The notes below the pieces were generated by a model that was given only the letters and a program-made list of their open reading frames with translations, was not told the DNA's origin and did no database searches. From the NCBI GenBank assembly GCA_049322575.1, contig JBMORQ010000015.1, positions 13,373 to 77,372 on the forward strand: 64,000 bases of DNA, written 5' to 3'. The position numbers and the translations under genes were made by a program. This DNA comes from Patescibacteria group bacterium (GTDB lineage: Bacteria; Patescibacteriota; Microgenomatia; UBA1400; PJMF01). This document shows, piece by piece, positions 11,664-55,530 of this stretch; within the stretch, counting starts at the first letter, position 1; the number at the start of each line of letters is the position of its first letter.

Positions 11664-11682
11664 AAGTTTGTTCGAAATCTAA

Positions 11683-12286: not shown

Positions 12287-12371
12287 GACTTTAATAAACC
12301 TCTTTAAAACTTTACATAGAACTAATGGTTCTTGTTAAAAAACAGCCTTTAAAAATAGATTTCCAGCACAA

Positions 12372-12410
12372 TAGACTTGTGGTGAAATAACATTTTTATT
12401 ACAAATGTAG
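12372..12410. repeat. Partial copy of the dispersed repeat (left terminal inverted repeat TAGACTTGTGGTGAAATAACATTTTTATTAC)
   Basis: It directly abuts the valS stop codon at 12411 and matches the first 35 nt or so of the long copies. Confidence 0.6.
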
Positions 12411-17084: not shown

Positions 17085-17274
17085 TTCTCTCCTTTTTTCT
17101 TATACTCTAACTAATAATTATACCAAGAGTTGTTTCTTTAAGTCAAATAGCTCTCCTGCGAACTAAAAATTTGCAATAAAGGTGTGATTACGCAGGAAAT
17201 CTAACACCTGTCATATGAGTCTTATTTATGTGTTGTTAGTTGTTATTTTTTTTAATAATTATCTTATTATTGAC

Positions 17275-26975: not shown

Positions 26976-26990
26976 GCTGGTCGTACTAAT

Positions 26991-27033
26991 TAGACTTGTG
27001 GTGAAATAAGATTTTTATGTCGCAGAAAGTCTG
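26991..27033. repeat. Partial hairpin copy of the dispersed repeat, lying between convergent genes
   Basis: The sequence tagacttgtggtgaaataagatttttatgtcgcagaaagtctg starts 16 nt after the ligase stop codon. Confidence 0.5.
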
Positions 27034-30217: not shown

Positions 30218-30418
30218 TAGACTTGTAATAATAGCGTCATTTCGCTATAAGTCTATAAGACTCGCCGCGGAATAATGTTCTAATCACGAAACTGCTTTTT
30301 AGTGCTACCAGAGTTGGCTTCTCACTCGAAGTAGCTATACTAGTTGGCTGGAAAAGCAATCTAGCTGCACACAAAACCAGTTTTTTGCTACGAAATCTTA
30401 TTTCGTGGGGCATGTCTA
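30218..30418. repeat. Composite or long copy (about 200 bp) of the dispersed repeat, beginning exactly at the stop codon of the upstream gene
   Basis: A 5' hairpin (tagacttgtaataatagcgtcatttcgctataagtcta) is followed by an internal block homologous to copy 11683 (cacgaaactgctttttagtgctacc...ctcactcgaagtagcta). It ends with the terminal-inverted-repeat-like tatttcgtggggcatgtcta. Confidence 0.6.
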
Positions 30419-32579: not shown

Positions 32580-32672
32580 TATAGCTGCTGCAAGTTTATT
32601 TCACTCTAAGACAGCAGCTTTCGCTCAACTAAATCAGTTTTCACTACAAGATCTTATTTGACAGAAAGTCTA
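32580..32672. repeat. Partial copy (right half) of the dispersed repeat
   Basis: The sequence ctttcgctcaactaaatcagttttcactacaagatcttatttgacagaaagtcta aligns with the right-hand 55 nt of copy 11683-11844. Confidence 0.45.
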
Positions 32673-32751
32673 TTTAAAAACCAGTCAATCACGACGAGTT
32701 TATTGAGACAGAACAAATTTTCACGGGAAAATTGATCATTAAGCCAAACCT

Positions 32752-34088: not shown

Positions 34089-34122
34089 GCTTGTAACGAA
34101 AATTTTATTTCGCTACGAGTCT
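34086..34122. repeat. Minimal hairpin version of the dispersed repeat (taggcttgtaacgaaaattttatttcgctacgagtct)
   Basis: A near-perfect palindrome whose first three bases, TAG, are the stop codon of the DUF192 gene; this placement is terminator-like. Confidence 0.55.
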
Positions 34123-34212
34123 CATAGATTCCCTGAGGATATGGCGCTATGCGAGATACTTATGGCGTTTGGCTTCTTCTCGATTAGTAGAAAAAAATGT
34201 ATCATGTAGCAG

Positions 34213-34968
34213 ATGGATCAATCTGCTCAAAACTTGTCGAGTCAAATAAAATCTGGAATTCGGAAACAGTTGACAAAGCTGTCAACTCCGCCTGTTTCTC
34301 TGGACTATTCGGTATCGACGACCTCAGCTCAGCCCACTGCCTCATACTCGGTAGGTGTGCAAGATGAGCTGACAGCCCAAGATTTATCGCCAATCCAAGA
34401 TACACCAACAGCCCACAATATACCAAGCGGCCAAAACCCACCAGCTCATCCTGCCTTTAATCAGAACTCAACACAAAATCAATCAGGGGATGATGATCTC
34501 GATCTGTTGATCGAGTCCATTGAGCAGGTAGAAGCTATGCCCCAGGTACTGCCAGAGGTATTTTTAAGGGCTAGTGATACGCTCAACCCGCCGGTGGCAT
34601 ATTCAGCGAAAAAAGAGACATTTGATGCAGCCGTTGGTCCTGATTTGAGCCAAGAGGATGGTGGAAAGGGCGTCCAATACGTTGAAACCGAGCCGTCGCC
34701 TGAGATATCGCCTGAGATTGAGGCATATCTACAGAAAGTTGAGCAGAGCCAGGATCAATTGCCTCAGGAAATAGTGGTGGCAGATGGCAGTATTGACCAG
34801 CCGGTTGGTCATGCTCGGCCATCCAAACCAGTGGTGGTTTTGCCCATTACTCAGGAAATCGAGGAAGAAGGCCAGAAAAAGAGTCCGGTTTTTAGTATCC
34901 GCTGGTTGGTTGAGTGGAGCCAAAAAATCATGAAGATGTTTGTGGGACGGGTTATCTATCGTCAGTAG
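34213..34968 (+). CDS. Hypothetical Pro/Gln/Ser-rich low-complexity protein
   Basis: An ORF with biased composition and no recognisable domain. Confidence 0.35.
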   Translation: MDQSAQNLSSQIKSGIRKQLTKLSTPPVSLDYSVSTTSAQPTASYSVGVQDELTAQDLSPIQDTPTAHNIPSGQNPPAHPAFNQNSTQNQSGDDDLDLLIESIEQVEAMPQVLPEVFLRASDTLNPPVAYSAKKETFDAAVGPDLSQEDGGKGVQYVETEPSPEISPEIEAYLQKVEQSQDQLPQEIVVADGSIDQPVGHARPSKPVVVLPITQEIEEEGQKKSPVFSIRWLVEWSQKIMKMFVGRVIYRQ

Positions 34969-35102: not shown

Positions 35103-35180
35103 AGACTCGGTGTGAATCTAGTTTTATTGTGCAAAAATGGTTCTTGCGAGTAATAAAAATGTTATTTCACTACAAATCTA
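35103..35180. repeat. Partial copy of the dispersed repeat upstream of the T4CP gene (right terminal inverted repeat gtaataaaaatgttatttcactacaaatcta, preceded by a tagactcggtgtgaatcta mini-palindrome)
   Basis: The right terminal inverted repeat is almost identical to that at 50480-50510. Confidence 0.55.
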
Positions 35181-35191
35181 ATTAACAAAAA

Positions 35192-37534
35192 ATGAGAAAC
35201 ATATCCACTCCAGAGCAGATGGCAGAAAAAGCAATGGGCGTTGTTTTTGGCCTATTTATGCTTGTGTTCTTGTTGGCTGCACTGATAGGAATTGCTTACT
35301 TATTATTTCTTTGGTTGAAGCGTCGCAATCGCGAAAACTACGCTCTGGATTTTGTTACCCTCATGATCCGGTTACCAAAAGACAACGAGATCAAGGTCGA
35401 TGCTGCTGAGCAGATGTTTGCCAGTCTTTTCTCTCTTAAAAAATCTGGCTGGATGGCCTTCGCCAAACCTGAAGAGGTGATTAGCTTTGAGATTGTGGCA
35501 CTCAAGGAATACATCGCATTTTATGTTTGCTGTCCCAAACGCATCCGTGATCTGGTAGAAAAACAAATTCAGGGCGCATATCCTCAAAGTGATATTAAAC
35601 AGGTGGATGAAGTTAATATTTTTAATGAAAATGGTAGGGTGGCCTTCGCCGATATTAAGTTGTCGAAGTCCAAGTATTTACCCATTAAAACCTACAAAGA
35701 TTTGCCAACCGATGGTTTGTCTTTGATAACTTCTGCTATGTCCAAGATGGGCGATGGTGAAGGTGCAATTTTGCAGTTTCTCTTCCAGCCCGAAGGCCAT
35801 AAATGGCAGGTTGCTGGGCGCTCCTACATGCAAAAAGAGAAAAAACGTGAGGCAGATCCAGACAAGGCGAGTTATAACCATGATCCTAAAGAAATGGAGG
35901 CGATAGGTAATAAGATTGAAAAGCCAGGATTTCGGGTAGCGATTCGAGCGGTGGTTTCGTCGCCCAACGAAATGATGGCTAAATCTCATTTGGAAAACAT
36001 TGTTGGAGCTTTTTCTCAGTTTACTTCTGCTTACAACAACTTTGGCAAACACATTCCTTTTTTTAAACACTTTTTCATGATCGATTTTATTTATCGTTAC
36101 ATGCCTTTTTTTGATCGCAATGTTTGCACTTTGAACACTGAGGAATTTGCCACGGTTTTTCATCTGCCAAATAAAACAGTTGCGACACACCACATCCAAT
36201 GGTTAACCGCAAAAAATGCCCCTGCACCAAACAATATTCCCAATCAAGGTTTGTATTTAGGCAAATCGATGTATCGTGGCGAAGCCCGTGAGGTTTTCAT
36301 GGACATCAACGACAGGCGTCGACACATGTACATTATTGGAAAAACCGGTACCGGTAAATCAGAGTATTTGAAAGAAATGATTTTACAGGATATTGAAAAC
36401 GGTTATGGAGTTTGTGCTATCGACCCCCATGGTGAGTTTGTTGAAGACATCTTACAACTCATGCCACCAGAGCGCGCCGAAGACGTAATTTATTTTAACC
36501 CCTCGGATTTGGAGAGGCCGATGGGCTTGAACATGATGGAGGCCGACACCGAGGAGCAGCGTCATTTTGTGGTGAGCTCGATCATCGGCTTGATGTATAA
36601 GCTTTACGATCCTCACCGCACTGGTATCATTGGTCCCCGTTTTGAGCACGCTATCCGCAACGCCATGTTAACTGTCATGAGCCGAGAAAACTCAACGTTT
36701 ATTGAGCTAGTGCGTTGTTTGACCGATCAAAAATTTGTTGAAGAAATGCTGCCTTATGTTAAAGACCCGGTGGTGAAACGCTATTGGACGGATCAGATCG
36801 CTCAGACCTCAGACTTTCACAAATCGGAAGTTTTGGATTACATCGTTTCCAAGTTTGGCCGCTTTGTAACTAACAAAACCATGCGTAATATTATTGGTCA
36901 AACTCAAAGTGCTTTTAATTTCCGCAAGGCCATGGACGAGAAGAAAATTATTTTGGTTAATTTATCCAAGGGTATTTTGGGCGAGGAAGACGCCAAGTTT
37001 TTAGGTTTGATTTTGGTGCCAAAAGTCCTGACTGCGGCCATGAGCCGTCAAGATGTGCCGATGGATCAACGCGAAGACTTTTTCCTTTATGTTGACGAGT
37101 TTCAGAACTACGCCACCGAGGATTTTGCTACGATCTTGTCCGAGGCGCGTAAATATCGTTTAAATCTAATCGTGGCTAACCAGTTTATTGGTCAGATTGA
37201 CGAAGAGATCAAGAATGCGGTTTTTGGCAACGTTGGCACGATTGTCTCTTTCCGCGTGGGTGTGACTGATGCCAACTTTTTGCAACACGAGTTTGCGCCA
37301 GTTTTTAACGAAAACGACCTGACCAACATCGAGAAATTTCACGTATACATCAAGACAATTGTTAAGAACGAACCAGTTGAAGCCTTTAGTATGTCGCTGC
37401 AAAAAGACATGGACGCGCAACAGGCTCGGATGAATCCCAAATTGGCGGAAATGATCAAAGAACTCTCGCGCTTGAAATACGGCAAGGACCGCTCGGTCAT
37501 TGAGGCCGACATGCAGGTGCGGGCGAAGTTGTAG
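35192..37534 (+). CDS. VirD4/TraG-family type IV coupling protein-like ATPase (T4CP)
   Basis: An N-terminal transmembrane helix, a Walker A motif (IIGKTGTGKSEY) followed by AIDPHGE (compare the xxDPKGD of TrwB/VirD4), a Walker B motif (FFLYVDEFQNY), and the T4CP-like LIVANQFIGQI motif (the Q-x-x-x-Q-L family). Confidence 0.6.
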   Translation: MRNISTPEQMAEKAMGVVFGLFMLVFLLAALIGIAYLLFLWLKRRNRENYALDFVTLMIRLPKDNEIKVDAAEQMFASLFSLKKSGWMAFAKPEEVISFEIVALKEYIAFYVCCPKRIRDLVEKQIQGAYPQSDIKQVDEVNIFNENGRVAFADIKLSKSKYLPIKTYKDLPTDGLSLITSAMSKMGDGEGAILQFLFQPEGHKWQVAGRSYMQKEKKREADPDKASYNHDPKEMEAIGNKIEKPGFRVAIRAVVSSPNEMMAKSHLENIVGAFSQFTSAYNNFGKHIPFFKHFFMIDFIYRYMPFFDRNVCTLNTEEFATVFHLPNKTVATHHIQWLTAKNAPAPNNIPNQGLYLGKSMYRGEAREVFMDINDRRRHMYIIGKTGTGKSEYLKEMILQDIENGYGVCAIDPHGEFVEDILQLMPPERAEDVIYFNPSDLERPMGLNMMEADTEEQRHFVVSSIIGLMYKLYDPHRTGIIGPRFEHAIRNAMLTVMSRENSTFIELVRCLTDQKFVEEMLPYVKDPVVKRYWTDQIAQTSDFHKSEVLDYIVSKFGRFVTNKTMRNIIGQTQSAFNFRKAMDEKKIILVNLSKGILGEEDAKFLGLILVPKVLTAAMSRQDVPMDQREDFFLYVDEFQNYATEDFATILSEARKYRLNLIVANQFIGQIDEEIKNAVFGNVGTIVSFRVGVTDANFLQHEFAPVFNENDLTNIEKFHVYIKTIVKNEPVEAFSMSLQKDMDAQQARMNPKLAEMIKELSRLKYGKDRSVIEADMQVRAKL

Positions 37535-37551
37535 AGAAAAACGATGTTTTC

Positions 37552-40500
37552 ATGCATGAAAAAATTGCTTATCAACCAAAGGATTCACAAAATTCTATTA
37601 GCTTGGCAAAAGAAGAGCTTGTTGTTTTGGAAGAGATTAGAAAGAAGATAGTTGCTGCTGACATCGATTTTAGACTCTCTACTGAGGATTATAAAAATCT
37701 CCTAGAATTGGGTCTTGATAAAAAATGCAACCTTTGGACGAGGAACGATTTACTGTCGGTAATAGTTCTTAGAATCAAGTTTATTTCTCAAGAAATCTTA
37801 GAAAAGACAGACGCAATAAATTTTTTTTCTGATGTAATAGGTAGTTCAGAGATGACCAATGATGGTGAGATTGTATTGCAAAAGGATGCTGATGGTATTG
37901 ACGGTGTTTGCAATAAGGTTCTTCAAAGTCTTGCAACTATTTTTCCAGACAATAAAAACGAGTTACAGGACAAATTGGCTTTTTCGGCAAATCATTTCTT
38001 ATCAATTGGCAATGCATTGGCCTATTTAGCGACGAGCAGTAATCCGACATTTTTTCAGCAAATTGAAACAGAGCTTTTAAATGAAAATCTGATTTGCAAA
38101 ATGAGAAGTGTTTGGTCGCAGGACATGAAAGATGCATTAAACGCCTGTCATCGCGAAAAGACAAAGGAGAGCTATCAGAGATTATTAAAGGCTTATCAGC
38201 GCGAAAAACCAAGGCTGATAGTGTTTTTATGTTTTGCAGTTTCTATGAGTATGTTTGAATCGACTGACCATGGTAATTTTGATAAGCATGCTGAAAGAAT
38301 TATAAAGGGTTTAGAGGACAGTAATTTTATTGGTTCGTTTGTTACTCATGCTGAAGTTATGCAAATTGTTGGAAGCATAGATGCTAATAAAAAACAAAAG
38401 GTTCAACCACAATTGGCGCAATATTTAAAATCGAAACTTGAGAGCGGAGAAATAAACTCTGGGTTTGCGCTCGAAATTTTTGCTTCTGCAAAGAATGGCT
38501 CATCTCTTTTAGAAAGTCCTAGTTTTATCAGATTTTTTGCTGAGATGGAATCATTTTTGATGGATGATTATCTAATTAAAGAAAATGATGCTAAACAAAG
38601 ACTGAGAATTAATCCAAATGTTAGGGCGATTGCCTCATTATTATTGTTGTCAATGTTTTTTGTTGGTGATTCAAAAACATATAGCAGACCTCAGTTACAG
38701 TTAGATTTTGGTAGGTTTTTCCCGATAACCATGAACGTTTTTGGTGGCTTGGAAGAAGGAATCGATACGGTAATCCAAAGGGTTAAGTTTGAAGATAAAA
38801 AAGAAGACGTTGTTGTTGAAGAAAAAAAAGAAACGGTTTCGGTAGAATCTTTAGGTATTGACCCAAAAGCTGTTAATAGCTCTGTGGAAGGACTGGATCA
38901 GGAGTCAGATAGGCAACATGAGGCCGCTCAAAAACTTGCCAATGAACTAGGTGAAAAAGATATCAACGAGTTTTTAATCGATTCTCCCGCTAGCCCAAGT
39001 AGTTTATCGAAATTTCAAACCGGGGCTGTCTCTGCCGAGGGTTATATTGCAACAGGTTATGAGGTTGGTTGTACTTTTAGGAAATCAAGTAGTAGCTCAA
39101 TCGGTTTTTTTAGTAAGGTTTTGTATGACAAAATAGATCCTGGTTCTGGAGAATTTGTTTCAAGCTGGAGTCCATCCAACGAAATTCCCCAGGAGCTTGA
39201 GCAGATTCCAATGATTGTTGCTTCTAGTGGAATGGAAATAATAATTTGCAAATTGTCCGAATTGCAGCCGAATAATTGGTACAGCATCGCAACTACCCCA
39301 TCTCGTTCAGTAGTGCGTGGTCAACTTGTTGCAGATAATCAAGGTGATCAAATTTTGATTCCGATTGAGGTTGTTAAAGATCCAGAAAGTACAACAAGTT
39401 TTTTTAGAATAAATGAAAAATATAAAGAAGATCTTAGCCGGTCGTCTGATTTCCAATTGGTTTATGAACTTGGAGACCCCTTTGATTATCCCCAAAAAGA
39501 AAAGGATGACGGGGTGCCGTTTCTGGACAGAGAATATATTGATCCGGCAATTATGCAAATAATTGACCAGCTCAATGCTGATAAGAATATGGACGAATAT
39601 GAGAAGCTAGTTGTGTTGCGTAAGGCCATGCAAAATTATGGAATATATAGTGTTGATCCAAAAAATGATCAAGATAAGTATTTAGCAGAATTTGTTGGAA
39701 AAGTTGATGCTGCCACTTATACAAAGCTGCGATATTCTTTGTATTTTGGTCAATATGAGCGATTTGGTTTAACGTCCGATACTGGTCCAGTCAAAGGTGC
39801 TGGCGAATGTAATAGATCAAATGGAGCAGCGTTTTTAGCCTTTGAGCATCTTATACTAAACGACTGGAAGATTCGCTTAAGAAGTGGTGACGTGATCTCT
39901 GAAAATGAAAAATATGGTTTTGCTGGATCTGGCCATATTTATATTGAAGCGGTCAACATTAAAAATGGCGAAATAATAGACCTTGATACAACATCTTCTA
40001 ATATAGATGCATACACCCAATCTTTGAGAGCAAAAGGACACGATCCATCAGTGGCCTTTGATGCAAATTTTGAACAATTAGCTAGTGGGACGTTAACAAT
40101 TACTGACTATGATTACAGTAATTATGTAACACCCGATACTTCACTTAACATAGAAGTAGCCTTGATCAGAAAGTCAGAGTGGGGCTGGCCTGTTACGCTT
40201 GATGATGAACTTCTTGCAAAAATTAATACTCCAGACAATTTCATTAATTATAATGATTGGTTTTCTCCTGATAAACTCAAGAAATGGATTGTAAATAGTA
40301 ACTATGGTTATGAGATTAATGTGGCAGATGAGGATGGTGGTGTTGATTACTGTATGCCGGTTTTTAGCAAAAATGATGGATTTACGACTCAAATTACTCC
40401 AGATTCAGTGCTAACTGATGGAATAATTAAAAATAAATTTTTAATTGAAAGAGTCGCTGACAAGGCTATGAAAATGAGGCGTGATTTTGTTGTTGAAATA

Positions 40501-42597
40501 AATGGAACCAACATGTTTCCTTTACCGATTCTTTGGTATGTATCAGTTCCGAGTATACGTTTGAGCACTCCTGATGGTGAGCCAGTAGAAATACAGTTAG
40601 TTGGAATAAAGAATTATGATCAGCCATTTATTTTAATTACCGACCCCAAATATATCGATAGCAAAGAAAGCAATGTTTTCATTTTAAGTTATCTATCTGG
40701 GGCGCTTACTGATAACCGTGATTTTTCTGCAGGAACTTATAAATATGGGTCAGTTGAGCCTCGAGATTTTTATGAAGCTAGGACCAGACTAGAAAATCTG
40801 GGCTTTTCTACTAACGACGCTGAAAGTGCAATTCTCGCAGCTAGAATCATCCAAATAAATGAGCTTTTGGGATCGTCAATCAAATATGGAGAGTGGCAAG
40901 GCAGAGATTTGATTTTCAACAACCTTCTTTCTTTGCAAGCGGACGCACAAGAAATGAATAATGAAAATGCGATTGTTTATGTTGGTGAGCTTTTAAAACT
41001 ATTTAAATTTGCAGATGATTTCATAACATTTTACAGTTCACTAACTAATGAAGAAAAAATGAATGTAAAAATATCAAGTCAATTAAAAATTATTATTGAG
41101 TCGGTTGACTGGCAATTGCTTAAATTAGAAACACCTACTAGCTTCGTAGGAACCGACGATGAAATAATTTATTATGTTGGCGCTGAAAAGATTGAGTATG
41201 TTGACTCACTTTTCTCATATATTTTTTCCTCGTTTTCCCAGCTCATGCCGTCAGAAGGATCAGTTAAGCCATTCACTTCTGGAAAAAGCTCAGAATCAGA
41301 GAATAATCTCAATAACTATTGTGCTGGTGTGTCAATTGATTTTAATGATTTAGCAGCTTGTCAGCTTCAATCACCATTTTTACCGAGTGGTGATGAAATG
41401 GTTAGTGCTATACGAAGAGCAATATTTAACATTGATGATGACTCACCAGTTTTTGAATTATTTTTTCATGATTATAATCCAGTAGAAATTATTAGAGGCA
41501 ATGATGTTATGGCTTCATTACCACTCTCTCAATTTACGCTTGATGACGAAGACGTCGCAGGCGGGATATTTCTTAAAGATGGCAGTGTGGGACCATCATC
41601 TTTTCTCCTTAACAATTCAAGGGCAGACTTATCATGGTGGCAGTATTTCCTTGATAATGAGAAAGGCAATTACAGTGAAGATCAAATTGTCACGCTCTAC
41701 GACACATTGATTAATGTTATCTCTGAGGATCCCGAAAGATATCTTGCTCAGGAACAGTTGCAGAGTCTCAGCGAAGAAAACAAGCAAGAGTTAATCAATA
41801 GATTGCAGGAAAGAGAATTAGAAAAAGTAAAGTTTCTATTTGAGCACATTTGTCGTTCGTTAGTAAAAGGTAACTATAAAGTTTGGAGTTCTTATTTAGC
41901 ACTTCTTTTGCCATTGGCAGCTGGTGCTTATGGTGCCATGCGTTGGCATGCTGAAACATATGATTGGAAGAGGAAGCGATTAAAAAGTATTGAGCTTGAA
42001 AAAGAACTTAAGTTGATTAGTGAAACCTTCAATTTGGAGATTGATTTAGTACGTGCCCATTTTGAAGATCTTGCCAAATCTAGGTCGATGGTTTTAGCCT
42101 TATCCGGAAATGTGAATCCGGAAAATGGCGAATATGATCATCTAAATTTACTGAGACGCTTGGTTGTTACTGCTCTCAAAACCACCGGAGAGACCAGGAT
42201 GCCTTTTAATCTGGGTTTTGAATCAGAGGCAAATAATCCATGGTCAAGCCACGACGTTCCGGCTACCTATTATTCTCATATTGATCAAGCAGTTAATGGT
42301 GGTCAAATTGAAGCAGTTGCATCACTTTGGCCAGACAACCATCAAGCGGCAGTGGTAAAGCAACTTGGCGAAATGTTTAAAGTTGGATCTGGAGGAAAAG
42401 TCATTTCTGCCAATGAGCAAGTTTTAAAAACCCCAGATCAATTTCAAAGACAATTATTGCTAAAAGCGATTGATGATTTACAAAAATCCGGCGTATCGGT
42501 GGAAAAATACCAACAGCAAGCTATTGAGCAAGTAGTTGCCTCTTGTGTTAAGACTTGGCAACAAATTATGATGGATTATCAAAGGATTAAATCATGA
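37552..42597 (+). CDS. Giant protein (1681 aa) of unknown function with an internal papain-fold (transglutaminase/CHAP/NlpC-P60-like) Cys-His-Asp core and a C-terminal transmembrane helix
   Basis: An uninterrupted ORF that starts 17 nt after the T4CP stop codon. At about nt 39780-39990 it encodes GAGECNRSNGAAFLAF...GSGHIYIEAV...IDLDTT, which matches a C-x(~40)-H-x(~15)-D papain-fold core. A C-terminal hydrophobic helix is present (VWSSYLALLLPLAAGAYGAM). Confidence 0.55.
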   Translation: MHEKIAYQPKDSQNSISLAKEELVVLEEIRKKIVAADIDFRLSTEDYKNLLELGLDKKCNLWTRNDLLSVIVLRIKFISQEILEKTDAINFFSDVIGSSEMTNDGEIVLQKDADGIDGVCNKVLQSLATIFPDNKNELQDKLAFSANHFLSIGNALAYLATSSNPTFFQQIETELLNENLICKMRSVWSQDMKDALNACHREKTKESYQRLLKAYQREKPRLIVFLCFAVSMSMFESTDHGNFDKHAERIIKGLEDSNFIGSFVTHAEVMQIVGSIDANKKQKVQPQLAQYLKSKLESGEINSGFALEIFASAKNGSSLLESPSFIRFFAEMESFLMDDYLIKENDAKQRLRINPNVRAIASLLLLSMFFVGDSKTYSRPQLQLDFGRFFPITMNVFGGLEEGIDTVIQRVKFEDKKEDVVVEEKKETVSVESLGIDPKAVNSSVEGLDQESDRQHEAAQKLANELGEKDINEFLIDSPASPSSLSKFQTGAVSAEGYIATGYEVGCTFRKSSSSSIGFFSKVLYDKIDPGSGEFVSSWSPSNEIPQELEQIPMIVASSGMEIIICKLSELQPNNWYSIATTPSRSVVRGQLVADNQGDQILIPIEVVKDPESTTSFFRINEKYKEDLSRSSDFQLVYELGDPFDYPQKEKDDGVPFLDREYIDPAIMQIIDQLNADKNMDEYEKLVVLRKAMQNYGIYSVDPKNDQDKYLAEFVGKVDAATYTKLRYSLYFGQYERFGLTSDTGPVKGAGECNRSNGAAFLAFEHLILNDWKIRLRSGDVISENEKYGFAGSGHIYIEAVNIKNGEIIDLDTTSSNIDAYTQSLRAKGHDPSVAFDANFEQLASGTLTITDYDYSNYVTPDTSLNIEVALIRKSEWGWPVTLDDELLAKINTPDNFINYNDWFSPDKLKKWIVNSNYGYEINVADEDGGVDYCMPVFSKNDGFTTQITPDSVLTDGIIKNKFLIERVADKAMKMRRDFVVEINGTNMFPLPILWYVSVPSIRLSTPDGEPVEIQLVGIKNYDQPFILITDPKYIDSKESNVFILSYLSGALTDNRDFSAGTYKYGSVEPRDFYEARTRLENLGFSTNDAESAILAARIIQINELLGSSIKYGEWQGRDLIFNNLLSLQADAQEMNNENAIVYVGELLKLFKFADDFITFYSSLTNEEKMNVKISSQLKIIIESVDWQLLKLETPTSFVGTDDEIIYYVGAEKIEYVDSLFSYIFSSFSQLMPSEGSVKPFTSGKSSESENNLNNYCAGVSIDFNDLAACQLQSPFLPSGDEMVSAIRRAIFNIDDDSPVFELFFHDYNPVEIIRGNDVMASLPLSQFTLDDEDVAGGIFLKDGSVGPSSFLLNNSRADLSWWQYFLDNEKGNYSEDQIVTLYDTLINVISEDPERYLAQEQLQSLSEENKQELINRLQERELEKVKFLFEHICRSLVKGNYKVWSSYLALLLPLAAGAYGAMRWHAETYDWKRKRLKSIELEKELKLISETFNLEIDLVRAHFEDLAKSRSMVLALSGNVNPENGEYDHLNLLRRLVVTALKTTGETRMPFNLGFESEANNPWSSHDVPATYYSHIDQAVNGGQIEAVASLWPDNHQAAVVKQLGEMFKVGSGGKVISANEQVLKTPDQFQRQLLLKAIDDLQKSGVSVEKYQQQAIEQVVASCVKTWQQIMMDYQRIKS

Positions 42598-44432
42598 CAG
42601 AAATACATCATCCGAGACTTGATTTTGATGGGGGCAATGATTCTAGAGCAAGAGCAGAACAGGATTGGGTTATTGCCGAGGCTACTAGAAGAACTGAACA
42701 GGGATCTGATTTCATTGTTACGCCTCATGCTCGTGAAAAACTTAATCGATTAAAGGAAGCATTCCGAAGAGGTAATAGAGTTGTAATAGTTGAAGGTCCA
42801 CCTGGTACGGGTAAGTCTCAACTTTTATACCAACTAGTGATAGAGCTCATGAAAGAGAATCCCGAAATTTTGGGTTATAGCAGGACTCAGGGAGCTCCGG
42901 GTTTAATTTCTGCTGATTTATTAGTTCAGCCAAGAGTTACACCCAAAACTAGCGCTGAAGATAATACTTTTCAGGCATTAGAAAACAATCAGGAATTGAT
43001 GGACAAAATAATTGGGGAGTATGTCCAGCTTTCTATTGGTGGTTTTTTAAATAACTTACCACCCGATGTTCGAAGACAAAAGATAGACTTATTTTTAAAA
43101 AAGATTGGGGTAAAAGGAGCTTTTTCTGAAACGGGTGAGCTTATTCTGGAAGAAGACCAATCGGAGTTTTTACAATTTTTAGAAGACAAAAGACTTCGTC
43201 AAAATTTGGGACCATTGGTTGATAAGAAAATTCTAGCACTGGCTATGGAACTGGGTTTATTGGTAATTATTGACGAGGCTAATATGGTCCGTACACCAAA
43301 TGGACTGGGATTGCAGGGACTAGAAAATGCTTTTACGGTCAAGCCCGGGGAAATATTTAATTTTGATGGCCTGTTTGTTATAGTTGATAAAGTTTTTGGT
43401 GTATTTATGACAACCAACAGTATTGACGAAATTTCGCCAGCAATTGCTAGGTTTGGTAGATCAGGTCATTTGACAATGAACGCTGACTCCGGAGATATGG
43501 CTGCTGCAGCAAGAGTTTTATTAACCGATGAAAAAGGTAAGTTTATTCTGTCAGAAAGAAAAAGAGATGAATCGGAATTGTGTAGGTTAATATGGTGGCT
43601 TGAGGACCTAAATTTAGAGGGAATAGATGTTAGCTTGAACTTAGTGACTCCGCTTTGTAAATTGATGGCAGAGGGTATGGATTTTAGGCAAGCATTTCAG
43701 CAGATAGTACAAAGCTTAAAAAGGGAAGAAAAGGATTATTTAATATCTAGAATTCGAGGCTCATTTCAAAGTACAGCTGGCGAGGATGAGGAAGCCTTTG
43801 GCCGTCAATCACTATCACAACTAAATTGTTTATACAACTCTGATGTTTTTGGTAATGAAAGGAAGGAAGCTCTTGTTGATTCTGGTTTTCGTGCTGAGTT
43901 TAATCAGACAACCGGAACGTGTTTTGTCACCGATGGAAACAACTCCGTTATTACAGAACACCAGTTTAAGATAGATGGATCAATCACTAAGCAGATCTCG
44001 TCTCCAGATGGAAAACTTCTTATAATGAATTCTGAAGGTGGATTGATTGTTATTGATACAGTTTTAATGCAGGCAATTCCAGTTTTGGATTCTAAACAAA
44101 TCGGTAAAGACTCAGAAAACATTGGTAATGAACGAGGCTTGAGAAATATCGAGGTTCATGAATTTTGTTGGGCAAACCATAATCAGCTGTTGGCCGTAAT
44201 TAAACGAGGCTCAAACTGGGAAGTGGCGCTTTTTTCAAAAGTGAAACAAAGAGCTGAGGCTGGTGAGTCGCCGATATCATTTCTCAAGATTGAAGAATCA
44301 AGAAAAATTGAACAACCTCAGAATGTGCTCGTAGAGGGCAAGCAGTTGATCGTTGATGATTATTTATACTCAGTTAATCAGGACGACCTTCTTAACCCAT
44401 TAGCGCGAAAAAAATTTAGCAATGCTAGTTGA
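42594..44432 (+). CDS. AAA+ ATPase (AAA_5/MoxR/McrB-like class)
   Basis: The start codon overlaps the giant gene's stop codon (ATGA). It carries a Walker A motif (VVIVEGPPGTGKSQL), a Walker B motif (LLVIIDEANMV) and a sensor-like ARFGRSGH segment. Confidence 0.7.
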   Translation: MTEIHHPRLDFDGGNDSRARAEQDWVIAEATRRTEQGSDFIVTPHAREKLNRLKEAFRRGNRVVIVEGPPGTGKSQLLYQLVIELMKENPEILGYSRTQGAPGLISADLLVQPRVTPKTSAEDNTFQALENNQELMDKIIGEYVQLSIGGFLNNLPPDVRRQKIDLFLKKIGVKGAFSETGELILEEDQSEFLQFLEDKRLRQNLGPLVDKKILALAMELGLLVIIDEANMVRTPNGLGLQGLENAFTVKPGEIFNFDGLFVIVDKVFGVFMTTNSIDEISPAIARFGRSGHLTMNADSGDMAAAARVLLTDEKGKFILSERKRDESELCRLIWWLEDLNLEGIDVSLNLVTPLCKLMAEGMDFRQAFQQIVQSLKREEKDYLISRIRGSFQSTAGEDEEAFGRQSLSQLNCLYNSDVFGNERKEALVDSGFRAEFNQTTGTCFVTDGNNSVITEHQFKIDGSITKQISSPDGKLLIMNSEGGLIVIDTVLMQAIPVLDSKQIGKDSENIGNERGLRNIEVHEFCWANHNQLLAVIKRGSNWEVALFSKVKQRAEAGESPISFLKIEESRKIEQPQNVLVEGKQLIVDDYLYSVNQDDLLNPLARKKFSNAS

Positions 44433-45042
44433 ACAAAGAGAAGAACCGATTTTTTCTACTATTGATAGTTTTAGGCAGTATTTTAAAGCCATTCAAGATA
44501 GAGGCCATGTAAGTAATGTTGATTATCGTTCCAGGCCTAATGTCAGTGAATTGTGCCGTGCAGCAGTAAAGTCAATGATCACTGGAATTGAAATTAGACC
44601 TGAAGCACAAGGATTACAGTCGAGAGAGATTGTCAAAAATAATGAGGTGATCATAATTTGCCAACGATATTTACTACCTGCTCTGGAGGAAATAAAACGC
44701 GCTGGCAATAAACATGGAATTGATGTAAGTTTTATAACAATCGAGCAAGTTTATAGTCCTATGGGAGTGAGTGTTTGGCGAGTTCATTTTCCAGGTGACG
44801 AATCCAATTTTGATTTACCTTTTGCCGAGTACAGTCATCATAAACTGGGTGATGTTATGGCACTTGCAAAAAATTTTCCACAATTGAACAAAACCATTGG
44901 GGATAAAAATGTTTTTGTTGTTGGTCCCAGACCAACTTACGATTCAGGTGTAGAACTTAAAGCGGTTGCATTAAAGAAAATGAAAAACAGAAATGGTAGC
45001 TATTGGCACGAGATCGGTCAAAATGGCTTTTCTGAGTTCTAG
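44422..45042 (+). CDS. Hypothetical protein (206 aa), the last gene of the T4CP-giant-AAA+ operon
   Basis: An 11-nt overlap with the AAA+ gene; no family was recognised. Confidence 0.4.
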   Translation: MLVEQREEPIFSTIDSFRQYFKAIQDRGHVSNVDYRSRPNVSELCRAAVKSMITGIEIRPEAQGLQSREIVKNNEVIIICQRYLLPALEEIKRAGNKHGIDVSFITIEQVYSPMGVSVWRVHFPGDESNFDLPFAEYSHHKLGDVMALAKNFPQLNKTIGDKNVFVVGPRPTYDSGVELKAVALKKMKNRNGSYWHEIGQNGFSEF

Positions 45043-45054
45043 CGCAGTTTATAG

Positions 45055-45798
45055 TTACTCTCCCAACCCCGCATGGGTATAAACTTTGGGCCCGTTAGAA
45101 CCAAAACCTGCCTCCGACATCTTTTTCTTTCTCCAAATCACGATGGCGGCCGCAACCAGCAGGCCGGCAAACAGAGAAAGTCCCACCACAACTCCCAGAT
45201 AGTTGGTGTTGGCAGCTTGATTTGTGGGTGGGTGCTGTGGAAAGGTTTCGGTTTTTGCTGCTCCGGTTGTAACACTCTTGCTTGGGGTGGCACTGGGCGT
45301 AGCGGTTTTAAGGTTGGCGCTGGCGGTGGAATTTCCCAGAATGCTGCCGTCAGCGGCACGGGAGGTTATCTCGGTGCTGGTAAAACGAATTTTTCCTGAT
45401 TCATCAATGACAAAACGCTTGGTAAATTTATAAATCTTGTCGTCTGCGGTTAGGGCCTGCAAAATTAAGGTTCCACTGGCAGGATCGTGCAAAAACTGAT
45501 CTCCGCCAGACTCAGTGCCTGCTAAGACAACCTCAGAGAAAACATTCTTAGTGTCTGCCTTGCCAGCTCCCCCCAGGCCGTTCTCGACTGCTTCTAAAAC
45601 CTCGTCGGCACTCGTGTTTGGATCAGTGCCCGTGTTTGTTGACAGGCTTGTCAAGTTGGCGGAAGCAGTGGCCTCACCTGGTTTGGGCAAACGAAGTTTG
45701 TAGGTTAACTGATATTCTACCTCAAGAACGTTGTAGGCCCCAATCGAAAACTCGTGGGTGTCTTTGTTGTAGGTGAGGGTAATGGTTGGTTTGCTCAT
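45055..45798 (-). CDS. Ala/Thr/Gly-rich surface protein with a C-terminal transmembrane anchor
   Basis: A C-terminal hydrophobic helix (LGVVVGLSLFAGLLVAAAIVIW) followed by RKKK, low-complexity T/S/A-rich stretches, and elevated GC content. Confidence 0.45.
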   Translation of the reverse strand: MSKPTITLTYNKDTHEFSIGAYNVLEVEYQLTYKLRLPKPGEATASANLTSLSTNTGTDPNTSADEVLEAVENGLGGAGKADTKNVFSEVVLAGTESGGDQFLHDPASGTLILQALTADDKIYKFTKRFVIDESGKIRFTSTEITSRAADGSILGNSTASANLKTATPSATPSKSVTTGAAKTETFPQHPPTNQAANTNYLGVVVGLSLFAGLLVAAAIVIWRKKKMSEAGFGSNGPKVYTHAGLGE

Positions 45799-48343: not shown

Positions 48344-49351
48344 TTGCATCGACAACAATCAACCTTGAAGTTATACTTCACACTTATGAAGTACAAACAT
48401 CTGGAAAAAACCAGCGAGATTGACAGAAAATTGCAACGGCTTTTACAACAGGTTCCATACGGTGCGAAATATTTGGCTGGCTTGATGGACTGGTTTAGCA
48501 TCGAACTGACTTATACCTCCAACGCACTCGAAGGCAACACCCTTACCAGGGCAGAAACAGCATTGGTGATTGAAAATGGCTTGACGACAGCGGGAAAAAC
48601 GATTCGCGAACATCTTGAAGCGATTAATCATGCCCAGGCTTTTGAATTTATAAAAAACAAAGTCGATCAATCAACTCAAGAACATAAAAATTTAGATGAA
48701 GATGATATTCTTAAAGCTCATCGCCTCATTTTGCAAAAAATTGATGATCAAAATGCTGGTCGCTATCGAAACGTTCCAGTTAGAATTTCGGGGTCGAGGG
48801 TAGTCATGCCCAATGCCGCTAAGATACCAGATTTAATGTCGGAGTTGGTTGCCGATTTTGGCAAGTCGAAGCAACATGTCGTTACTCAAGCAGTCGATTT
48901 TCACTTGCGTTTGGTGTCAATTCATCCATTTCTTGATGGCAATGGCCGCGTGGCCAGATTGATGATGAATTTTTGGCTCATGATGTATGGTTATCCGCCG
49001 CTAATAGTTTCCAAGGAGGTGCGCAGGCAATATCTTTCAAGCATTGAAAAAGTACAACTTGGTGGCTCATCTGCCGATTATTACAACCTCATGTACCAAG
49101 CCATGAATTATTCGCTGGATATTTGTCTAGAAAATTCCCAGCAACAAGAAAAGCTCCGCCAGTTAAACAAAAAATCTTTATTAAAAATTGGTGATTTTGC
49201 CAATCTGTCTTCTGAAACTGTGCCAACTATCCGCTATTGGACCAAGCAGGGATTAATTGATGTAGACGATTATTCTAGGGGTGGTTATCAGCTTTATTCA
49301 CCAAGTGCTATCAAAAGAACTAAGAAAATTCGCCAACTTCAGAAAAATTAA
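48344..49351 (+). CDS. Fic-family protein fused to a C-terminal MerR-type HTH
   Basis: The class II inhibitory motif TSNALEGN (matching [ST]xxxE[GN]), the Fic motif HPFLDGNGRVARLM, and a C-terminal segment IGDFANLSSETVPTIRYWTKQGLID...GGYQLY typical of the MerR N-terminal HTH. Confidence 0.8.
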   Translation: MHRQQSTLKLYFTLMKYKHLEKTSEIDRKLQRLLQQVPYGAKYLAGLMDWFSIELTYTSNALEGNTLTRAETALVIENGLTTAGKTIREHLEAINHAQAFEFIKNKVDQSTQEHKNLDEDDILKAHRLILQKIDDQNAGRYRNVPVRISGSRVVMPNAAKIPDLMSELVADFGKSKQHVVTQAVDFHLRLVSIHPFLDGNGRVARLMMNFWLMMYGYPPLIVSKEVRRQYLSSIEKVQLGGSSADYYNLMYQAMNYSLDICLENSQQQEKLRQLNKKSLLKIGDFANLSSETVPTIRYWTKQGLIDVDDYSRGGYQLYSPSAIKRTKKIRQLQKN

Positions 49352-49425: not shown

Positions 49426-50064
49426 TTATTTCTTAGACAGTCTATTTTGGAGATATTCTTTTACGTTTTTAATAATGATATCTTTAATTTGAGAGTCGGA
49501 ATATTCTTTTCCGACCCATTCAATTGGTGTCATTTCCAAATCATCAAAGAAAGTTAGTGGATCGAGAATCCATCTCTGGTTTATTTGATATCTGGCAACT
49601 GACTCTTCGACAGCTTCTTTTAGTGAGCAAACACTTTGTTCCAAACAGATGGCTACATCAACATAATCTCTCCACGTGGCTCTTCTGCCTATGACATAAA
49701 GCTTTGAACTAAAAATATCTTTGATGTTTACAAGGGAAAAATTTTCAAAATCTTGTGGATTGTGTAAGAGTGGCGCTTCGTCTTGAAAGAAAGTAATTTT
49801 TACTTCATCGGCAAAAGCTGTATATTGTGATTCTGAAAGCAGGCGTTGTGATAAATCAAAATTTTTGAGGACTTGTTGGACTTTTTTTACTAAATCAGCT
49901 CCTATTTTTTCCTGGGTAACGAAATCTAAATCATATGATTTTCTGTGGCCAATTTGCAGGGAAAGAGCAGTTCCTCCTAGTAATTTACCAAGATTTAAAT
50001 TTCCGAGTTTTTCTAGTAGTTCCAGTTGTTTGGCAGAAACTGTTTCAAAGTGCAAATTTGACAT
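49426..50064 (-). CDS. Nucleotidyltransferase of the AbiEii/DUF1814 type (type IV toxin-antitoxin or abortive-infection toxin-like)
   Basis: Contains LGGTALSLQIGHRKSYDLDF, which matches the AbiEii signature (l.GGTAL.l..gHR.S.DlDf). Confidence 0.6.
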   Translation of the reverse strand: MSNLHFETVSAKQLELLEKLGNLNLGKLLGGTALSLQIGHRKSYDLDFVTQEKIGADLVKKVQQVLKNFDLSQRLLSESQYTAFADEVKITFFQDEAPLLHNPQDFENFSLVNIKDIFSSKLYVIGRRATWRDYVDVAICLEQSVCSLKEAVEESVARYQINQRWILDPLTFFDDLEMTPIEWVGKEYSDSQIKDIIIKNVKEYLQNRLSKK

Positions 50065-50338
50065 AGTTTTCTTTATCGATGGAATCTGAAATTTTTAGCA
50101 AATAATTTTTGACGAAATTAAAAGTTTGGGGCTGATATGTAGATCTAGGTCTATTAACAAAAGTATTCTTAATTTTAGTTAGAGAATAAATCTTCTCAAG
50201 CCATTTAAAATCGTTTAAATCACCGTATTGCAACACTTGATGAATAATGTATTCACGGTGTTTTTCTTTATCAAGTTGAGAAAAATCACACGACCAAAAA
50301 ATTTTTTGTGCAGATCTGGGTAAGCTCTTTAAGGCCAT
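50045..50338 (-). CDS. Small protein partner of the AbiEii-like gene (possible antitoxin); the start is moved to the ATG at 50338
   Basis: It overlaps the downstream AbiEii-like gene by 20 nt. The ORF-track start at 50362 is a TTG lying inside the repeat's terminal inverted repeat, whereas the first ATG, at 50336-50338, lies just outside the repeat. Confidence 0.35.
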   Translation of the reverse strand: MALKSLPRSAQKIFWSCDFSQLDKEKHREYIIHQVLQYGDLNDFKWLEKIYSLTKIKNTFVNRPRSTYQPQTFNFVKNYLLKISDSIDKENYVKFAL

Positions 50339-50347
50339 AGCTGAAAT

Positions 50348-50510
50348 TAGACTTGTAGCCAAATAAAATTTTGTAGTGAAAAATTGATTTTTTTGAACGA
50401 AAAGGGTTTTTTTGAGCGAAGTAGTAGCATAGCTAATTCGAGCGAGAAAAAAACCTTTGTAGTACTTAAAAGCAGTTTTGTAATAAAAATGTTATTTCAC
50501 TACAAGTCTA
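50348..50510. repeat. Full-length copy (163 bp) of the dispersed repeat with terminal inverted repeats TAGACTTGTAGCCAAATA ... TATTTCACTACAAGTCTA
   Basis: It is near-identical, in inverted orientation, to copy 11683-11844 and shares the internal block ttgaacgaaaagggtttttttgagcgaagtagta. Confidence 0.75.
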
Positions 50511-50611
50511 TTATATAGCAAAAGCCATGCAAATAAAAATTTGTTTCCTAAAAATTTCCCCACAAGTCTAAGCGGTTTTATCGTTAAGTTTTGTTTTTAG
50601 GTTTTTCCCAC

Positions 50612-53825: not shown

Positions 53826-53962
53826 CCATTTCCAGGCAATTACTTTGTCATGATAACTTGACAGCTGGTCTGAGATCTATCGCGGGTAAACTAGATTACT
53901 GAATTACTTGGGGGAGGAGAACTCTGCTAGAACAGATCGTATTGGGGAGGAGACCCAAATTG

Positions 53963-54036
53963 TGAGCCGGGGAGGACTTGAACCCCCGACCAGTAAGGTA
54001 TAAGCTTACCGCTCTAACCAACTGAGCTACCGGCTC
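53963..54036 (-). tRNA. tRNA-Ile with anticodon UAU (reads AUA)
   Basis: Folded by hand into a cloverleaf. The acceptor stem is GAGCCGG/CCGGCTC, positions 8-9 are U-A, the D stem is GCTC/GAGC, the anticodon stem is GTAAG/CTTAC with loop C-U-UAU-A-C, and the T arm is GGGGG-TTCAAGT-CCTCC with discriminator A. The 3' CCA is not encoded. Confidence 0.8.
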
Positions 54037-54276: not shown

Positions 54277-55515
54277 CTAGAGGAAGAGCAAGAGTAGAGC
54301 ACCTACACCTAGGGCTACAAGCCCGACCTTGAGATAGTTCATCCAATCAGCTGGGCCGGTTTGAGGTAACTCAGCTGGCAGTTCTTGGGCTACGTAAACT
54401 GTCTCAACATACTTGGTGGTGGCACCACTTGGCATTCTGCAATACTGATCCTCGGGATTGACGTCAAGCCTACAGCGTCCGTTGTAGCAGATATGACTGA
54501 CATTGGCACAGTCTGAGTTGATTGAGCAGGTGTCATTACATTGAACAGTAGTGACAACTATGTAGCCAGTCGGTTGTGGTGAAACATATGGAGGCAGGGT
54601 TGGTACTGGGGTATTGGTGGCACCAGGCACTGGCGTGTTAGTTGGCACAGTCGGGGCGGTGCAACATGAACTGTAGCTCGGGTTAGCCGCACAGGCCGTT
54701 CGATATTCGTTGTAGCCACAGTAGTTGCTGCCGTTACTGGCTGGGATACAGACCAAGCTACCAGTACAGTCATCGTCATTTGAACATGGTGTGTAACCAC
54801 AGTCGCTGGGAGCGGGAGTTGGTGTAGCCGTTGGAGCAGCTGTACAACAACTTGCAACACTTGGACTGGCGATACAGGCAGTTCTGTATTGTGGCAAACT
54901 ACAGTAGTTATTGCCGTTGTTTGCAGTGACACAGACTAGTTCTCCGGCACAACTGTTATCATCGGTGCAAGGCGTGTATCCACATTCACTTGGAGCTGGT
55001 GTTGCTGTTGGAGTCGGGGTGGACGACGGGGTTGGTGTGCGGGACGGTGTCGGTGATGGCCCACGGGTTGGTGTGGGGGAAACCGATGGCCGCCTGGTTG
55101 GGGTTGGCGATTGTCTGGTGATTGTTGGGCTAGGTCGTGGTGTTGAGGTAGCCGTGACACGAGGTGTTGTTGGAGTGGGATTGACAGCTCCGACATCGAA
55201 AGTTAGAGTACAAGTGGCTGTTTTCGAAACATATGCGGCCGGTTCTGACTCAGGAGCATTAGGAGCCACTGGCGCTGTTTTGCTGATGCGCTGCTTCTGA
55301 GAGATGAGTACACCTGCTAAGCCAGCGACTAAAACGAGGATGAGAGCCACAACCCCAAGCAAAGCGCGAACATCAACACCAAGAAGCTTCTTGGGTGATT
55401 TCTTTTTGAAACCACTGGGAATGTTGGCCGACGGTACATTACCAATCACTTGATCAGGGTTGTTGGCGTGATCCTTCATATATAAAGCTTGTGGTTGGTT
55501 ATTAGTGTCTATCAT
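54277..55515 (-). CDS. Cysteine-rich, Pro/Thr-rich surface protein with an N-terminal signal anchor and a C-terminal LPXTG sorting signal
   Basis: An N-terminal transmembrane helix (VALILVLVAGLAGVLI); two internal repeats of about 60 aa, each with eight Cys (ECGYTPC..C.G.LVC....NG.NYC....YRTAC...PS..SCCTA); and C-terminal LPQTG followed by a hydrophobic tail. Confidence 0.6.
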   Translation of the reverse strand: MIDTNNQPQALYMKDHANNPDQVIGNVPSANIPSGFKKKSPKKLLGVDVRALLGVVALILVLVAGLAGVLISQKQRISKTAPVAPNAPESEPAAYVSKTATCTLTFDVGAVNPTPTTPRVTATSTPRPSPTITRQSPTPTRRPSVSPTPTRGPSPTPSRTPTPSSTPTPTATPAPSECGYTPCTDDNSCAGELVCVTANNGNNYCSLPQYRTACIASPSVASCCTAAPTATPTPAPSDCGYTPCSNDDDCTGSLVCIPASNGSNYCGYNEYRTACAANPSYSSCCTAPTVPTNTPVPGATNTPVPTLPPYVSPQPTGYIVVTTVQCNDTCSINSDCANVSHICYNGRCRLDVNPEDQYCRMPSGATTKYVETVYVAQELPAELPQTGPADWMNYLKVGLVALGVGALLLLFL

Positions 55516-55530
55516 TTTATTTTATCTAGA

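Follow-up and report, generated by a model that had tools for sequence, protein, structure and literature searches.

In Pseudomonas aeruginosa, the genes PA2875 and PA2874, which adjoin tgpA, presumably encode a MoxR ATPase of the AAA+ superfamily and a DUF58 protein, respectively. The three genes are cotranscribed, and TgpA is an essential inner-membrane protein in which a periplasmic loop (amino acids 180 to 544), situated between transmembrane (TM) helices, has transglutaminase activity (PMC3507681). A fixed order of aaa-atp (MoxR), duf58, and tgm genes is likewise found in the PFNA cluster of bifidobacteria (PMC8430577; also PMC12067865). Here we describe a rare cassette of three genes, for which the best reading is that of a highly divergent analogue, not a member, of the MoxR-DUF58-TgpA triad. 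The cassette resides in a metagenome-assembled Patescibacteria genome (NCBI assembly GCA_049322575.1), within a 64,000-nucleotide (nt) stretch of the 79.6-kb contig JBMORQ010000015.1, hereafter the window, where it follows a gene for an ATPase resembling the coupling proteins (T4CPs) of type IV secretion systems (T4SSs).

For that upstream gene, the closest described systems are the orphan VirD4-type T4CP homologues of Patescibacteria. Of the 5,713 T4CP homologues counted across 2,918 genomes, only 148 lie near virB4, and exaptation of the orphans to other roles has been suggested; the chromosomal T4SS of Paceibacteria and Microgenomatia is placed by dnaA/dnaN (PMC12102498).

Two unrelated units at one locus

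The four open reading frames (ORFs), all on the + strand, span 35192–37534 (gene 1, 780 amino acids), 37552–42597 (gene 2, 1681 amino acids), 42594–44432 (gene 3, 612 amino acids), and 44422–45042 (gene 4, 206 amino acids), with genes 2 to 4 corresponding to locus tags ACOZAN_01605 to ACOZAN_01615. A gap of 17 nt separates genes 1 and 2, genes 2 and 3 overlap by 4 nt, and genes 3 and 4 by 11 nt, exactly as given in the original prediction, which viewed the four genes as one functional unit. Comparative analyses show instead that the region comprises two unrelated units, a core gene 1 and a foreign cassette of genes 2 to 4.

Orthologues of gene 1 are present on at least 173 genome contigs in a scan of one genome per species and are unusually conserved, reaching 85% identity across many Patescibacteria species. 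Synteny was examined in the best 80 of these 173 loci (57 to 85% identity), in which ORFs of at least 60 amino acids were called and searched with the window proteins, the negatives holding to E ≤ 10. Genes 2, 3, and 4, as well as the next gene downstream (g5), found no match in any of the 80 loci, and family profiles of the giant protein, the ATPase, and the small protein of the cassette gave nothing beyond P-loop noise. The conserved synteny expected of a four-gene functional unit thus fails, with 0 of 80 gene 1 loci containing relatives of genes 2 to 4. Nor was a T4CP-like gene found in any of the nine other contexts in which the cassette occurs. Base composition changes at the same boundary. 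The G+C content at third codon positions (GC3) is 0.46 in g0, the gene preceding gene 1, and 0.498 in gene 1 itself, compared with 0.292, 0.302, and 0.275 in genes 2, 3, and 4, respectively, and 0.51 to 0.53 in a downstream MacB block; the drop in GC coincides exactly with the gene 1/gene 2 junction, and GC rises again where gene 4 meets g5. No consistent compositional difference between the cassette and its flanks is seen in the other genomes, and the contrast is specific to this one.

The upstream side of gene 1 is conserved, with g0 found in 71 of the 80 loci, DUF192 in 64, and Lgt in 38, in the order Lgt-DUF192-g0. The g0 gene (34213–34968, + strand) encodes a 251-residue low-complexity protein rich in Q, S, and P, in which a C-terminal segment is conserved; it has no match among Pfam, NCBIfam, PADLOC, or PHROG families. 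Given its place directly ahead of gene 1 in those 71 loci, g0 is likely a functional partner of gene 1. It is not part of the cassette. Downstream of the orthologues the genes vary; often there is a small minus-strand gene followed by a MacB/ABC/HlyD block, and other neighbors include an MFS transporter, a PilB-like ATPase, a GHMP kinase, and an epimerase. As these downstream genes vary among the relatives, and the MacB/ABC/HlyD block (50.6–53.8 kb) here lies 13 kb downstream of gene 1, the region at 37.5–50.6 kb is a variable island. Gene 1 itself belongs to the conserved core of Patescibacteria genes and, grouped with its upstream neighbors Lgt, DUF192, and g0, probably works independently of what follows it. 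Of the two readings originally offered, that of a novel ATPase-driven system therefore survives in reduced form, with synteny holding for the trio of genes 2 to 4 and gene 1 excluded. The locus also carries a caution: tight spacing need not mean a functional operon, since as little as 17 nt can separate a core gene from foreign cargo. Promoter and terminator scans of the locus gave fewer sites than shuffled sequence and performed no better than it.

The assignment of gene 1 as T4CP-like is borne out by its domain matches. It encodes a VirD4/HerA-type ATPase with one N-terminal TM segment (amino acids 14 to 42), a Walker A motif (GKTGTGKS, amino acids 383 to 390), the AIDPHGE sequence (amino acids 409 to 415), and a Walker B motif (FFLYVDEF, amino acids 630 to 637), all of which the original prediction had listed. 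Pfam matches are to DUF87/HerA (7e-10, 39.8 bits) and TrwB_AAD_bind (1e-7, 31.6 bits; cut-off 20.5), with TraG-D_C (19.9 bits) falling just below its cut-off of 22, while matches to HerA, DotL, and TrwB in the PDB are weak. The protein thus combines a TrwB/VirD4 nucleotide-binding domain, including the all-alpha-domain region, with an N-terminal membrane anchor, as in VirD4-type T4CPs. PADLOC matches (mad8 and HerA) arise through the ATPase core. Gene 1 also matches the phage family phrog_5156 (Bacillus phage G gp156-like) at 2.4e-94, and its full-length phage relatives, from Bacillus phage G (gp156) and Geobacillus/deep-sea thermophilic phages (JN638751, GU568037), are 20 to 23% identical to it. 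A phage origin, to which the phrog_5156 match had pointed, was rejected given this low identity and the lack of a significant viral structural match for the gene 2 model.

The nearest T4SS gene to gene 1 is VirB4-like and lies 34 kb upstream. It is represented by the C-terminal part of a VirB4-type ATPase (13–1545, + strand; P-loop_TraG 5e-26, CagE_TrbE_VirB 1.6e-4), whose ORF probably begins before the window, and is followed directly by dnaA (1780–3285) and dnaN (3539–4648), which is the T4SS position given in PMC12102498. No relaxase was found among the window ORFs scanned, the small ORFs having been scanned only in part, and gene 1 is linked to neither a T4SS nor a relaxase locus. In its TrwB_AAD_bind and HerA/DUF87 matches, its N-terminal TM segment, and its distance of ~34 kb from virB4, gene 1 resembles the orphan VirD4-type T4CP homologues (PMC12102498). 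It differs from them in having a single TM segment and ~300 uncharacterized residues ahead of the ATPase domain, and in matching phrog_5156. This likeness covers gene 1 only and says nothing of genes 2 to 4. The strong conservation of gene 1 together with g0 bears on the question, raised in PMC12102498, of what role T4CP homologues play away from T4SSs.

Components of the three-gene cassette

Word-indexed searches with gene 2, gene 3, and an alignment of 14 giants returned the queries only. When 1.84 billion representatives were searched exhaustively with HMMER, using a concatenation of gene 2 amino acids 482 to 1080, gene 3 amino acids 280 to 612, and gene 4, the search retrieved 13 giants of 1570 to 1918 amino acids (E 4e-24 to 1.6e-4), along with three ATPases of 755 to 802 amino acids (E 1.5e-6 to 8e-5). 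The notion that genes 2 and 3 are true ORFans was overturned by this search, the word-index prefilter having missed relatives at 15 to 35% identity. Scans of metagenome and viral contigs with an alignment of the giant's catalytic-triad domain yielded no further loci.

In every context with enough flanking sequence, the giant adjoins the ATPase. The order ATPase, small protein (213 to 272 amino acids), giant occurs in seven of these contexts, six of them independent sets (L082/L083, L084, L085/L086, the P0012 contig, L089, and L090/L091). The order is rotated in the window, where it runs giant, ATPase, small protein, and the P0009 contig (JGI 3300050046), with giant, ATPase, small protein, giant, contains the window's arrangement; its two giants (1753 and 1782 amino acids) are mutual closest relatives at 39% identity. 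In L088 (10001–15757) the ATPase is followed directly by a giant of 1918 amino acids with no separate small gene. This giant is ~230 residues longer, and fusion of the small-protein domain into it was considered and set aside, the small-protein profile giving no sign of it. L087 has a truncated small protein and then a giant at the contig end, and the P0004 contig, which carries the top-scoring relative of gene 2, has no ATPase–small protein pair ahead of its giant but stops just after it and is too short for its context to be judged. In all, the cassette is found in about nine other Microgenomates-type genomes or contigs, the named sources being Woesebacteria and Microgenomates metagenome-assembled genomes (MAGs), and its flanks differ everywhere, consisting of housekeeping genes such as those for ribosomal proteins, tRNA synthetases, and glycolysis. 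Genes 2 to 4 are thus a rare conserved three-gene cassette that appears undescribed and that is compositionally foreign in the present genome. In agreement with the original statement that no described defense system was recognized, PADLOC 2.0 gave no specific match for the cassette and no match at all for genes 2 and 4.

Gene 2 (37552–42597, + strand) encodes the giant, a predicted two-pass membrane protein. Its 13 full-length distant relatives (1570 to 1918 amino acids) align with it end to end at 15 to 19% identity, with pairwise identities of 15 to 43% within the family. None of the 14 members has a Pfam match, and gene 2 itself has none in Pfam, NCBIfam, PADLOC, or PHROGs, none in the PDB by sequence, and, as originally noted, no relaxase features. 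Conserved against this divergence are Cys753, His795, and Asp812 (codons 39808–39810, 39934–39936, and 39985–39987, + strand), which are invariant in 14 of 14 giants. An AlphaFold2 model of amino acids 520 to 1090, built from a 13-sequence alignment, is confident over amino acids 520 to 830 (39109–40041, +; predicted local distance difference test [pLDDT] 70 to 96) and poor beyond. The modeled region forms a beta-sandwich followed by an alpha/beta core, with Cys753 at the start of a helix, His795 within a strand, and Asp812 just past the strand that comes next. In the model this layout is of the papain/transglutaminase type, which places the domain at fold level in the transglutaminase-like superfamily. 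Foldseek matches the region to 3ISR, a Cytophaga hutchinsonii transglutaminase-like putative cysteine protease, with an E value of 5e-5 and probability of 1.0 over about 250 to 295 aligned columns; the beta-sandwich also has adhesin-like structural matches, and no significant viral structural match was found. The papain-fold Cys-His-Asp core first noticed in the single sequence therefore holds up, its triad being invariant in 14 members and its region folding like a transglutaminase domain.

The C-terminal TM helix that had been ascribed to gene 2 corresponds to a conserved hydrophobic segment, though it lies 220 residues from the end and is one of two. Segment 1, predicted TM1, covers amino acids 357 to 372 (38620–38667, +) and is preceded by a Lys/Arg cluster, whereas segment 2, predicted TM2, covers amino acids 1444 to 1463 (41881–41940, +) and is followed by an Arg-rich cluster of the RRRW type. 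The equivalent of segment 1, with its preceding K/R cluster, is among the top three hydrophobic segments in 12 of 14 members, and so is that of segment 2, with its RRRW-type cluster, which aligns across the family. No N-terminal signal peptide was found in gene 2. Because the K/R clusters lie outside both segments, the positive-inside rule would put the N- and C-terminal domains in the cytoplasm and the middle ~1070 residues, enzyme domain included, outside it, a predicted topology derived from hydropathy and charge only. In the predicted cytoplasmic C-terminal domain, the family alignment reveals the conserved motif NPW-S-[RH]-[DE]-[VIL]-P-[PA]-[TS]-Y (42235–42270, +), a candidate docking site for the ATPase; P1570 of gene 2 is nearly invariant, and the giants share a W..IM.DY C terminus.

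Gene 3 (42594–44432, + strand) encodes a divergent AAA+ ATPase, which aligns over its full length with seven relatives of 725 to 802 amino acids. Its Walker A (42795–42818), Walker B (43257–43280), and sensor-1 (N275; 43404–43424) motifs are followed by a conserved RVLLTD...LCR..WW block (43512–43604), and G68, G71, G73, K74, E228, N275, R289, and R307 are invariant in all eight ATPases. The family thus possesses Walker A, Walker B, a sensor-1 Asn, and conserved Arg residues, the features of the AAA+ superfamily. Seven of eight members match Pfam AAA (1e-11) and six of eight AAA_5 (6e-11), with AAA_22 and AAA_16 also matched, and profile matches in the PDB are to Cdc48/p97 and dynein AAA modules. 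Gene 3 alone gave only subthreshold P-loop matches, and its PADLOC matches span 20 to 40 residues. The ATPases have an insert of ~150 residues between Walker A and Walker B and a C-terminal extension of ~300 residues, and the C-terminal half of gene 3 is predicted to be beta-rich in a single-sequence AlphaFold model (mean pLDDT 35). Of the earlier assignment to a McrB/MoxR class, the AAA+ part is clear at family level, but the narrower part is not: members are 612 to 802 residues long, AAA_3 is absent among the 25 of 33 matched Pfam families listed, and neither gene 3 nor gene 4 matches a McrB or McrC model in PADLOC, Pfam, or NCBIfam.

Gene 4 (44422–45042, + strand) occupies the small-protein slot after the ATPase, as judged by its position and junction overlap. 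It is an orphan of 206 residues with no match in Pfam, NCBIfam, PADLOC, or PHROGs, and the exhaustive HMMER search found only itself, in line with the original view that it has no recognizable family. Comparison with the small proteins of 213 to 272 residues gave an hhalign probability of 0.2% and, by hmmsearch, rank 240 of 2001 against 2000 shuffles. Homology is thus not detectable, and gene 4 is taken only as the positional equivalent of these proteins. The ATPase and small-protein genes overlap by 11 to 22 nt in all six loci compared, the window included.

Other features of the window

A dispersed intergenic repeat of ~31 to 38 nt accompanies the locus, with one copy (35150–35182, + strand) lying 10 nt ahead of the start codon of gene 1, where a partial copy had been reported. 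Its core, ATGTTATTTCACTACAAGTCTA, allowing up to 3 mismatches, occurs in 7 copies in the window against 0 expected. Copies were located at 1600–1637, 11677–11716, 12369–12405, 17173–17203, 26988–27024, and 30225–30255, and further ones at 32638–32675, 34093–34125, 50345–50382, and 50477–50513. The copy at 50480–50510 is 97% identical to that at 35150–35182, and the pair brackets gene 1 and the variable island. A 64-nt inverted pair (11764–11827/50366–50429) belongs with the set. The repeat lies always in spacers, in both orientations, and may be a promoter, a terminator, or an element resembling a miniature inverted-repeat transposable element. The core was not found in 90 of 91 other loci and is thus genome specific.

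Beyond gene 4 lies the convergent g5 (45055–45798, − strand; 12-nt gap; GC3 0.53), whose product of 247 residues has a TM anchor at its C terminus and gives a weak LPXTG-like match (E 0.05). The variable island also contains a Fic-MerR fusion gene (48344–49351, +) and genes for an AbiEii toxin and a DUF6922 partner (49426–50064 and 50045–50362, both −) of very low GC3 (0.26); a second Fic gene, of the Fic-HTH type, is located at 23885–24976 (+). Elsewhere, a protein of 1050 residues with a DUF4012 domain (4e-25; 7444–10596, +) is another large uncharacterized protein in the window. The only tRNA gene in the window, for tRNA-Ile (53962–54036, −), has the anticodon TAT (UAU). This anticodon is uncommon in bacteria, in which AUA is normally read by a lysidine-modified CAU tRNA. 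Two adjacent ORFs of 412 and 764 residues without a Pfam match follow at 54277–57825 (−), the larger of which contains internal direct repeats of 141 nt and 89 nt (57241–57549 and 55960–56228). GC is 0.47 to 0.49 in this region and falls abruptly to 0.30 to 0.34 past 58 kb (58000–64000), forming another compositional break.

Proposed mode of action and alternatives

The cassette shares with the MoxR/DUF58/TgpA triad the order ATPase, small protein, and membrane protein, the last with a predicted outward-facing transglutaminase-like domain. The differences are considerable. Neither Transglut_core (PF01841) nor DUF3488 was detected in any of the 14 giants at E ≤ 0.05, and fragments of gene 2 gave no PF01841 match at E ≤ 10. 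TgpA is 688 residues long, whereas the giants have 1570 to 1918 and add large predicted cytoplasmic N- and C-terminal domains; TgpA, moreover, has DUF3488 and about five TM helices before its enzymatic domain (PMC3507681), in contrast to the single hydrophobic segment that follows ~350 residues of helical soluble sequence in the giant. MoxR proteins are compact (~300 to 350 residues) and belong to AAA_3, whereas the cassette ATPases have 612 to 802 residues, the ~150-residue insert, and AAA/AAA_5 matches. The DUF58/vWA partner of MoxR systems also has no counterpart by sequence signal, the six small proteins, gene 4 included, giving no DUF58 or vWA match at E ≤ 10. The stand-alone 3ISR protein, of 285 residues, has the same N-terminal beta-sandwich and transglutaminase-like core as gene 2 amino acids 520 to 830 at 13 to 15% identity, and we know of no TM segments or ATPase partner for it. 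The LapG/LapD/LapA adhesin-release system divides protease and giant adhesin between two proteins and is controlled by c-di-GMP via LapD instead of by an AAA+ ATPase; it has no sequence relationship to the cassette.

The reading that we favor overall, and consider somewhat probable, is that gene 1 stands apart and that genes 2 to 4 encode a membrane enzyme, the giant, with an ATPase and a small protein, following a MoxR/DUF58/TgpA-like logic. Under it we infer catalysis, an interaction of the ATPase with the giant, and a role for the small protein. The giant would span the membrane twice, with ~350 N-terminal and ~215 C-terminal residues in the cytoplasm and a middle of ~1070 residues, including the beta-sandwich and the Cys753-His795-Asp812 domain, outside the cell. 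The outside domain might cross-link, deamidate, or cleave proteins, either in the cell's own envelope or on the surface of a host. The AAA+ ATPase would be cytoplasmic and probably form a ring, with the small protein as a putative adaptor. Because the order of the cassette is that of the MoxR AAA+/DUF58/TgpA triad, we propose that the ATPase and small protein engage the giant's cytoplasmic domains, for example at the NPW..[DE].PP.Y motif, and so may assemble, insert, or switch on the enzyme. In gene 2 itself, segments 1 and 2 are of modest hydropathy, scoring 1.53 and 1.30, below the usual threshold. A more specific version, which we put forward tentatively and with considerable doubt, is that genes 2 to 4 are an undescribed, horizontally mobile, fast-evolving surface-enzyme system specific to Patescibacteria (Microgenomates), in which a cytoplasmic AAA+ motor would act across the membrane on a transglutaminase-like protease or cross-linker that is borne extracellularly by the giant and serves in attachment to the host or remodeling of its surface.

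An alternative that we regard as unlikely holds that the giant, instead of residing in the membrane as an enzyme, serves the episymbiotic lifestyle as an effector or toxin that is exported or inserted into the host, with the AAA+ ATPase acting as an unfoldase or export chaperone and the hydrophobic segments entering a target membrane. The missing signal peptide and only moderately hydrophobic segments of gene 2 would suit such a protein, as would the restriction of the family to Patescibacteria-type MAGs, the adhesin-like matches of the beta-sandwich, and a rapid sequence divergence of the kind expected of host-interaction proteins. Yet no secretion-system gene is conserved beside the cassette, the charges around both segments fit the positive-inside rule for a resident two-pass protein, and the closest structural relative, TgpA, is itself a resident inner-membrane protein (PMC3507681).

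The possibility that the cassette is an antiphage or conflict system, in which the AAA+ NTPase would sense invasion and set free the cysteine-protease domain of the giant to act as an effector, abortive or defensive, seems to us quite unlikely. It is in keeping with the compositionally foreign character of the cassette and its place here in a variable island with Fic-MerR and AbiEii/DUF6922 toxin–antitoxin genes, with a family that is rare, patchy, and very fast evolving (15 to 43% pairwise identity), and with the pairing of NTPases and proteases, a common theme of conflict systems (PMC7159879). However, PADLOC gives generic P-loop matches only, the flanks in other genomes are ordinary housekeeping genes, neither a nuclease nor any other typical effector is present, structural relatives in viruses were not found, and a predicted extracytoplasmic catalytic domain would be ill suited to an intracellular suicide effector. 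Finally, it is highly improbable that all four genes form one T4SS-linked module, as the other original reading had it, with gene 1 recruiting the giant as a substrate or cell-wall-breaching factor and the AAA+ protein helping as a chaperone, since the tight same-strand spacing with no predicted terminator between genes 1 and 2, the genuine T4CP domains of gene 1, and the VirB4-like gene 34 kb upstream in the same window are set against the lack of the cassette in all 80 gene 1 orthologue loci, the co-occurrence of gene 2 and gene 3 relatives without a T4CP-like gene in the nine other contexts, the strong GC3 break at the gene 1/gene 2 junction, and the location of most Patescibacteria T4CP homologues away from T4SS genes (PMC12102498).

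The favored reading, that of a membrane enzyme with an ATPase and a small-protein partner, would add a very divergent form to the MoxR-DUF58-TgpA theme, which is itself poorly understood. Giant proteins are a hallmark of the genomes of Patescibacteria, also termed the candidate phyla radiation (CPR), and are suspected to be involved in dependence on host cells. To our knowledge, almost no CPR giant protein has an assigned fold or partner. One of them can now be placed in a small family with an invariant triad; its transglutaminase-like domain is predicted to face outward, its two partners are conserved, and concrete hypotheses follow from these features. Should the more specific version hold true, the surface-enzyme cassette would be a new molecular player in episymbiosis.

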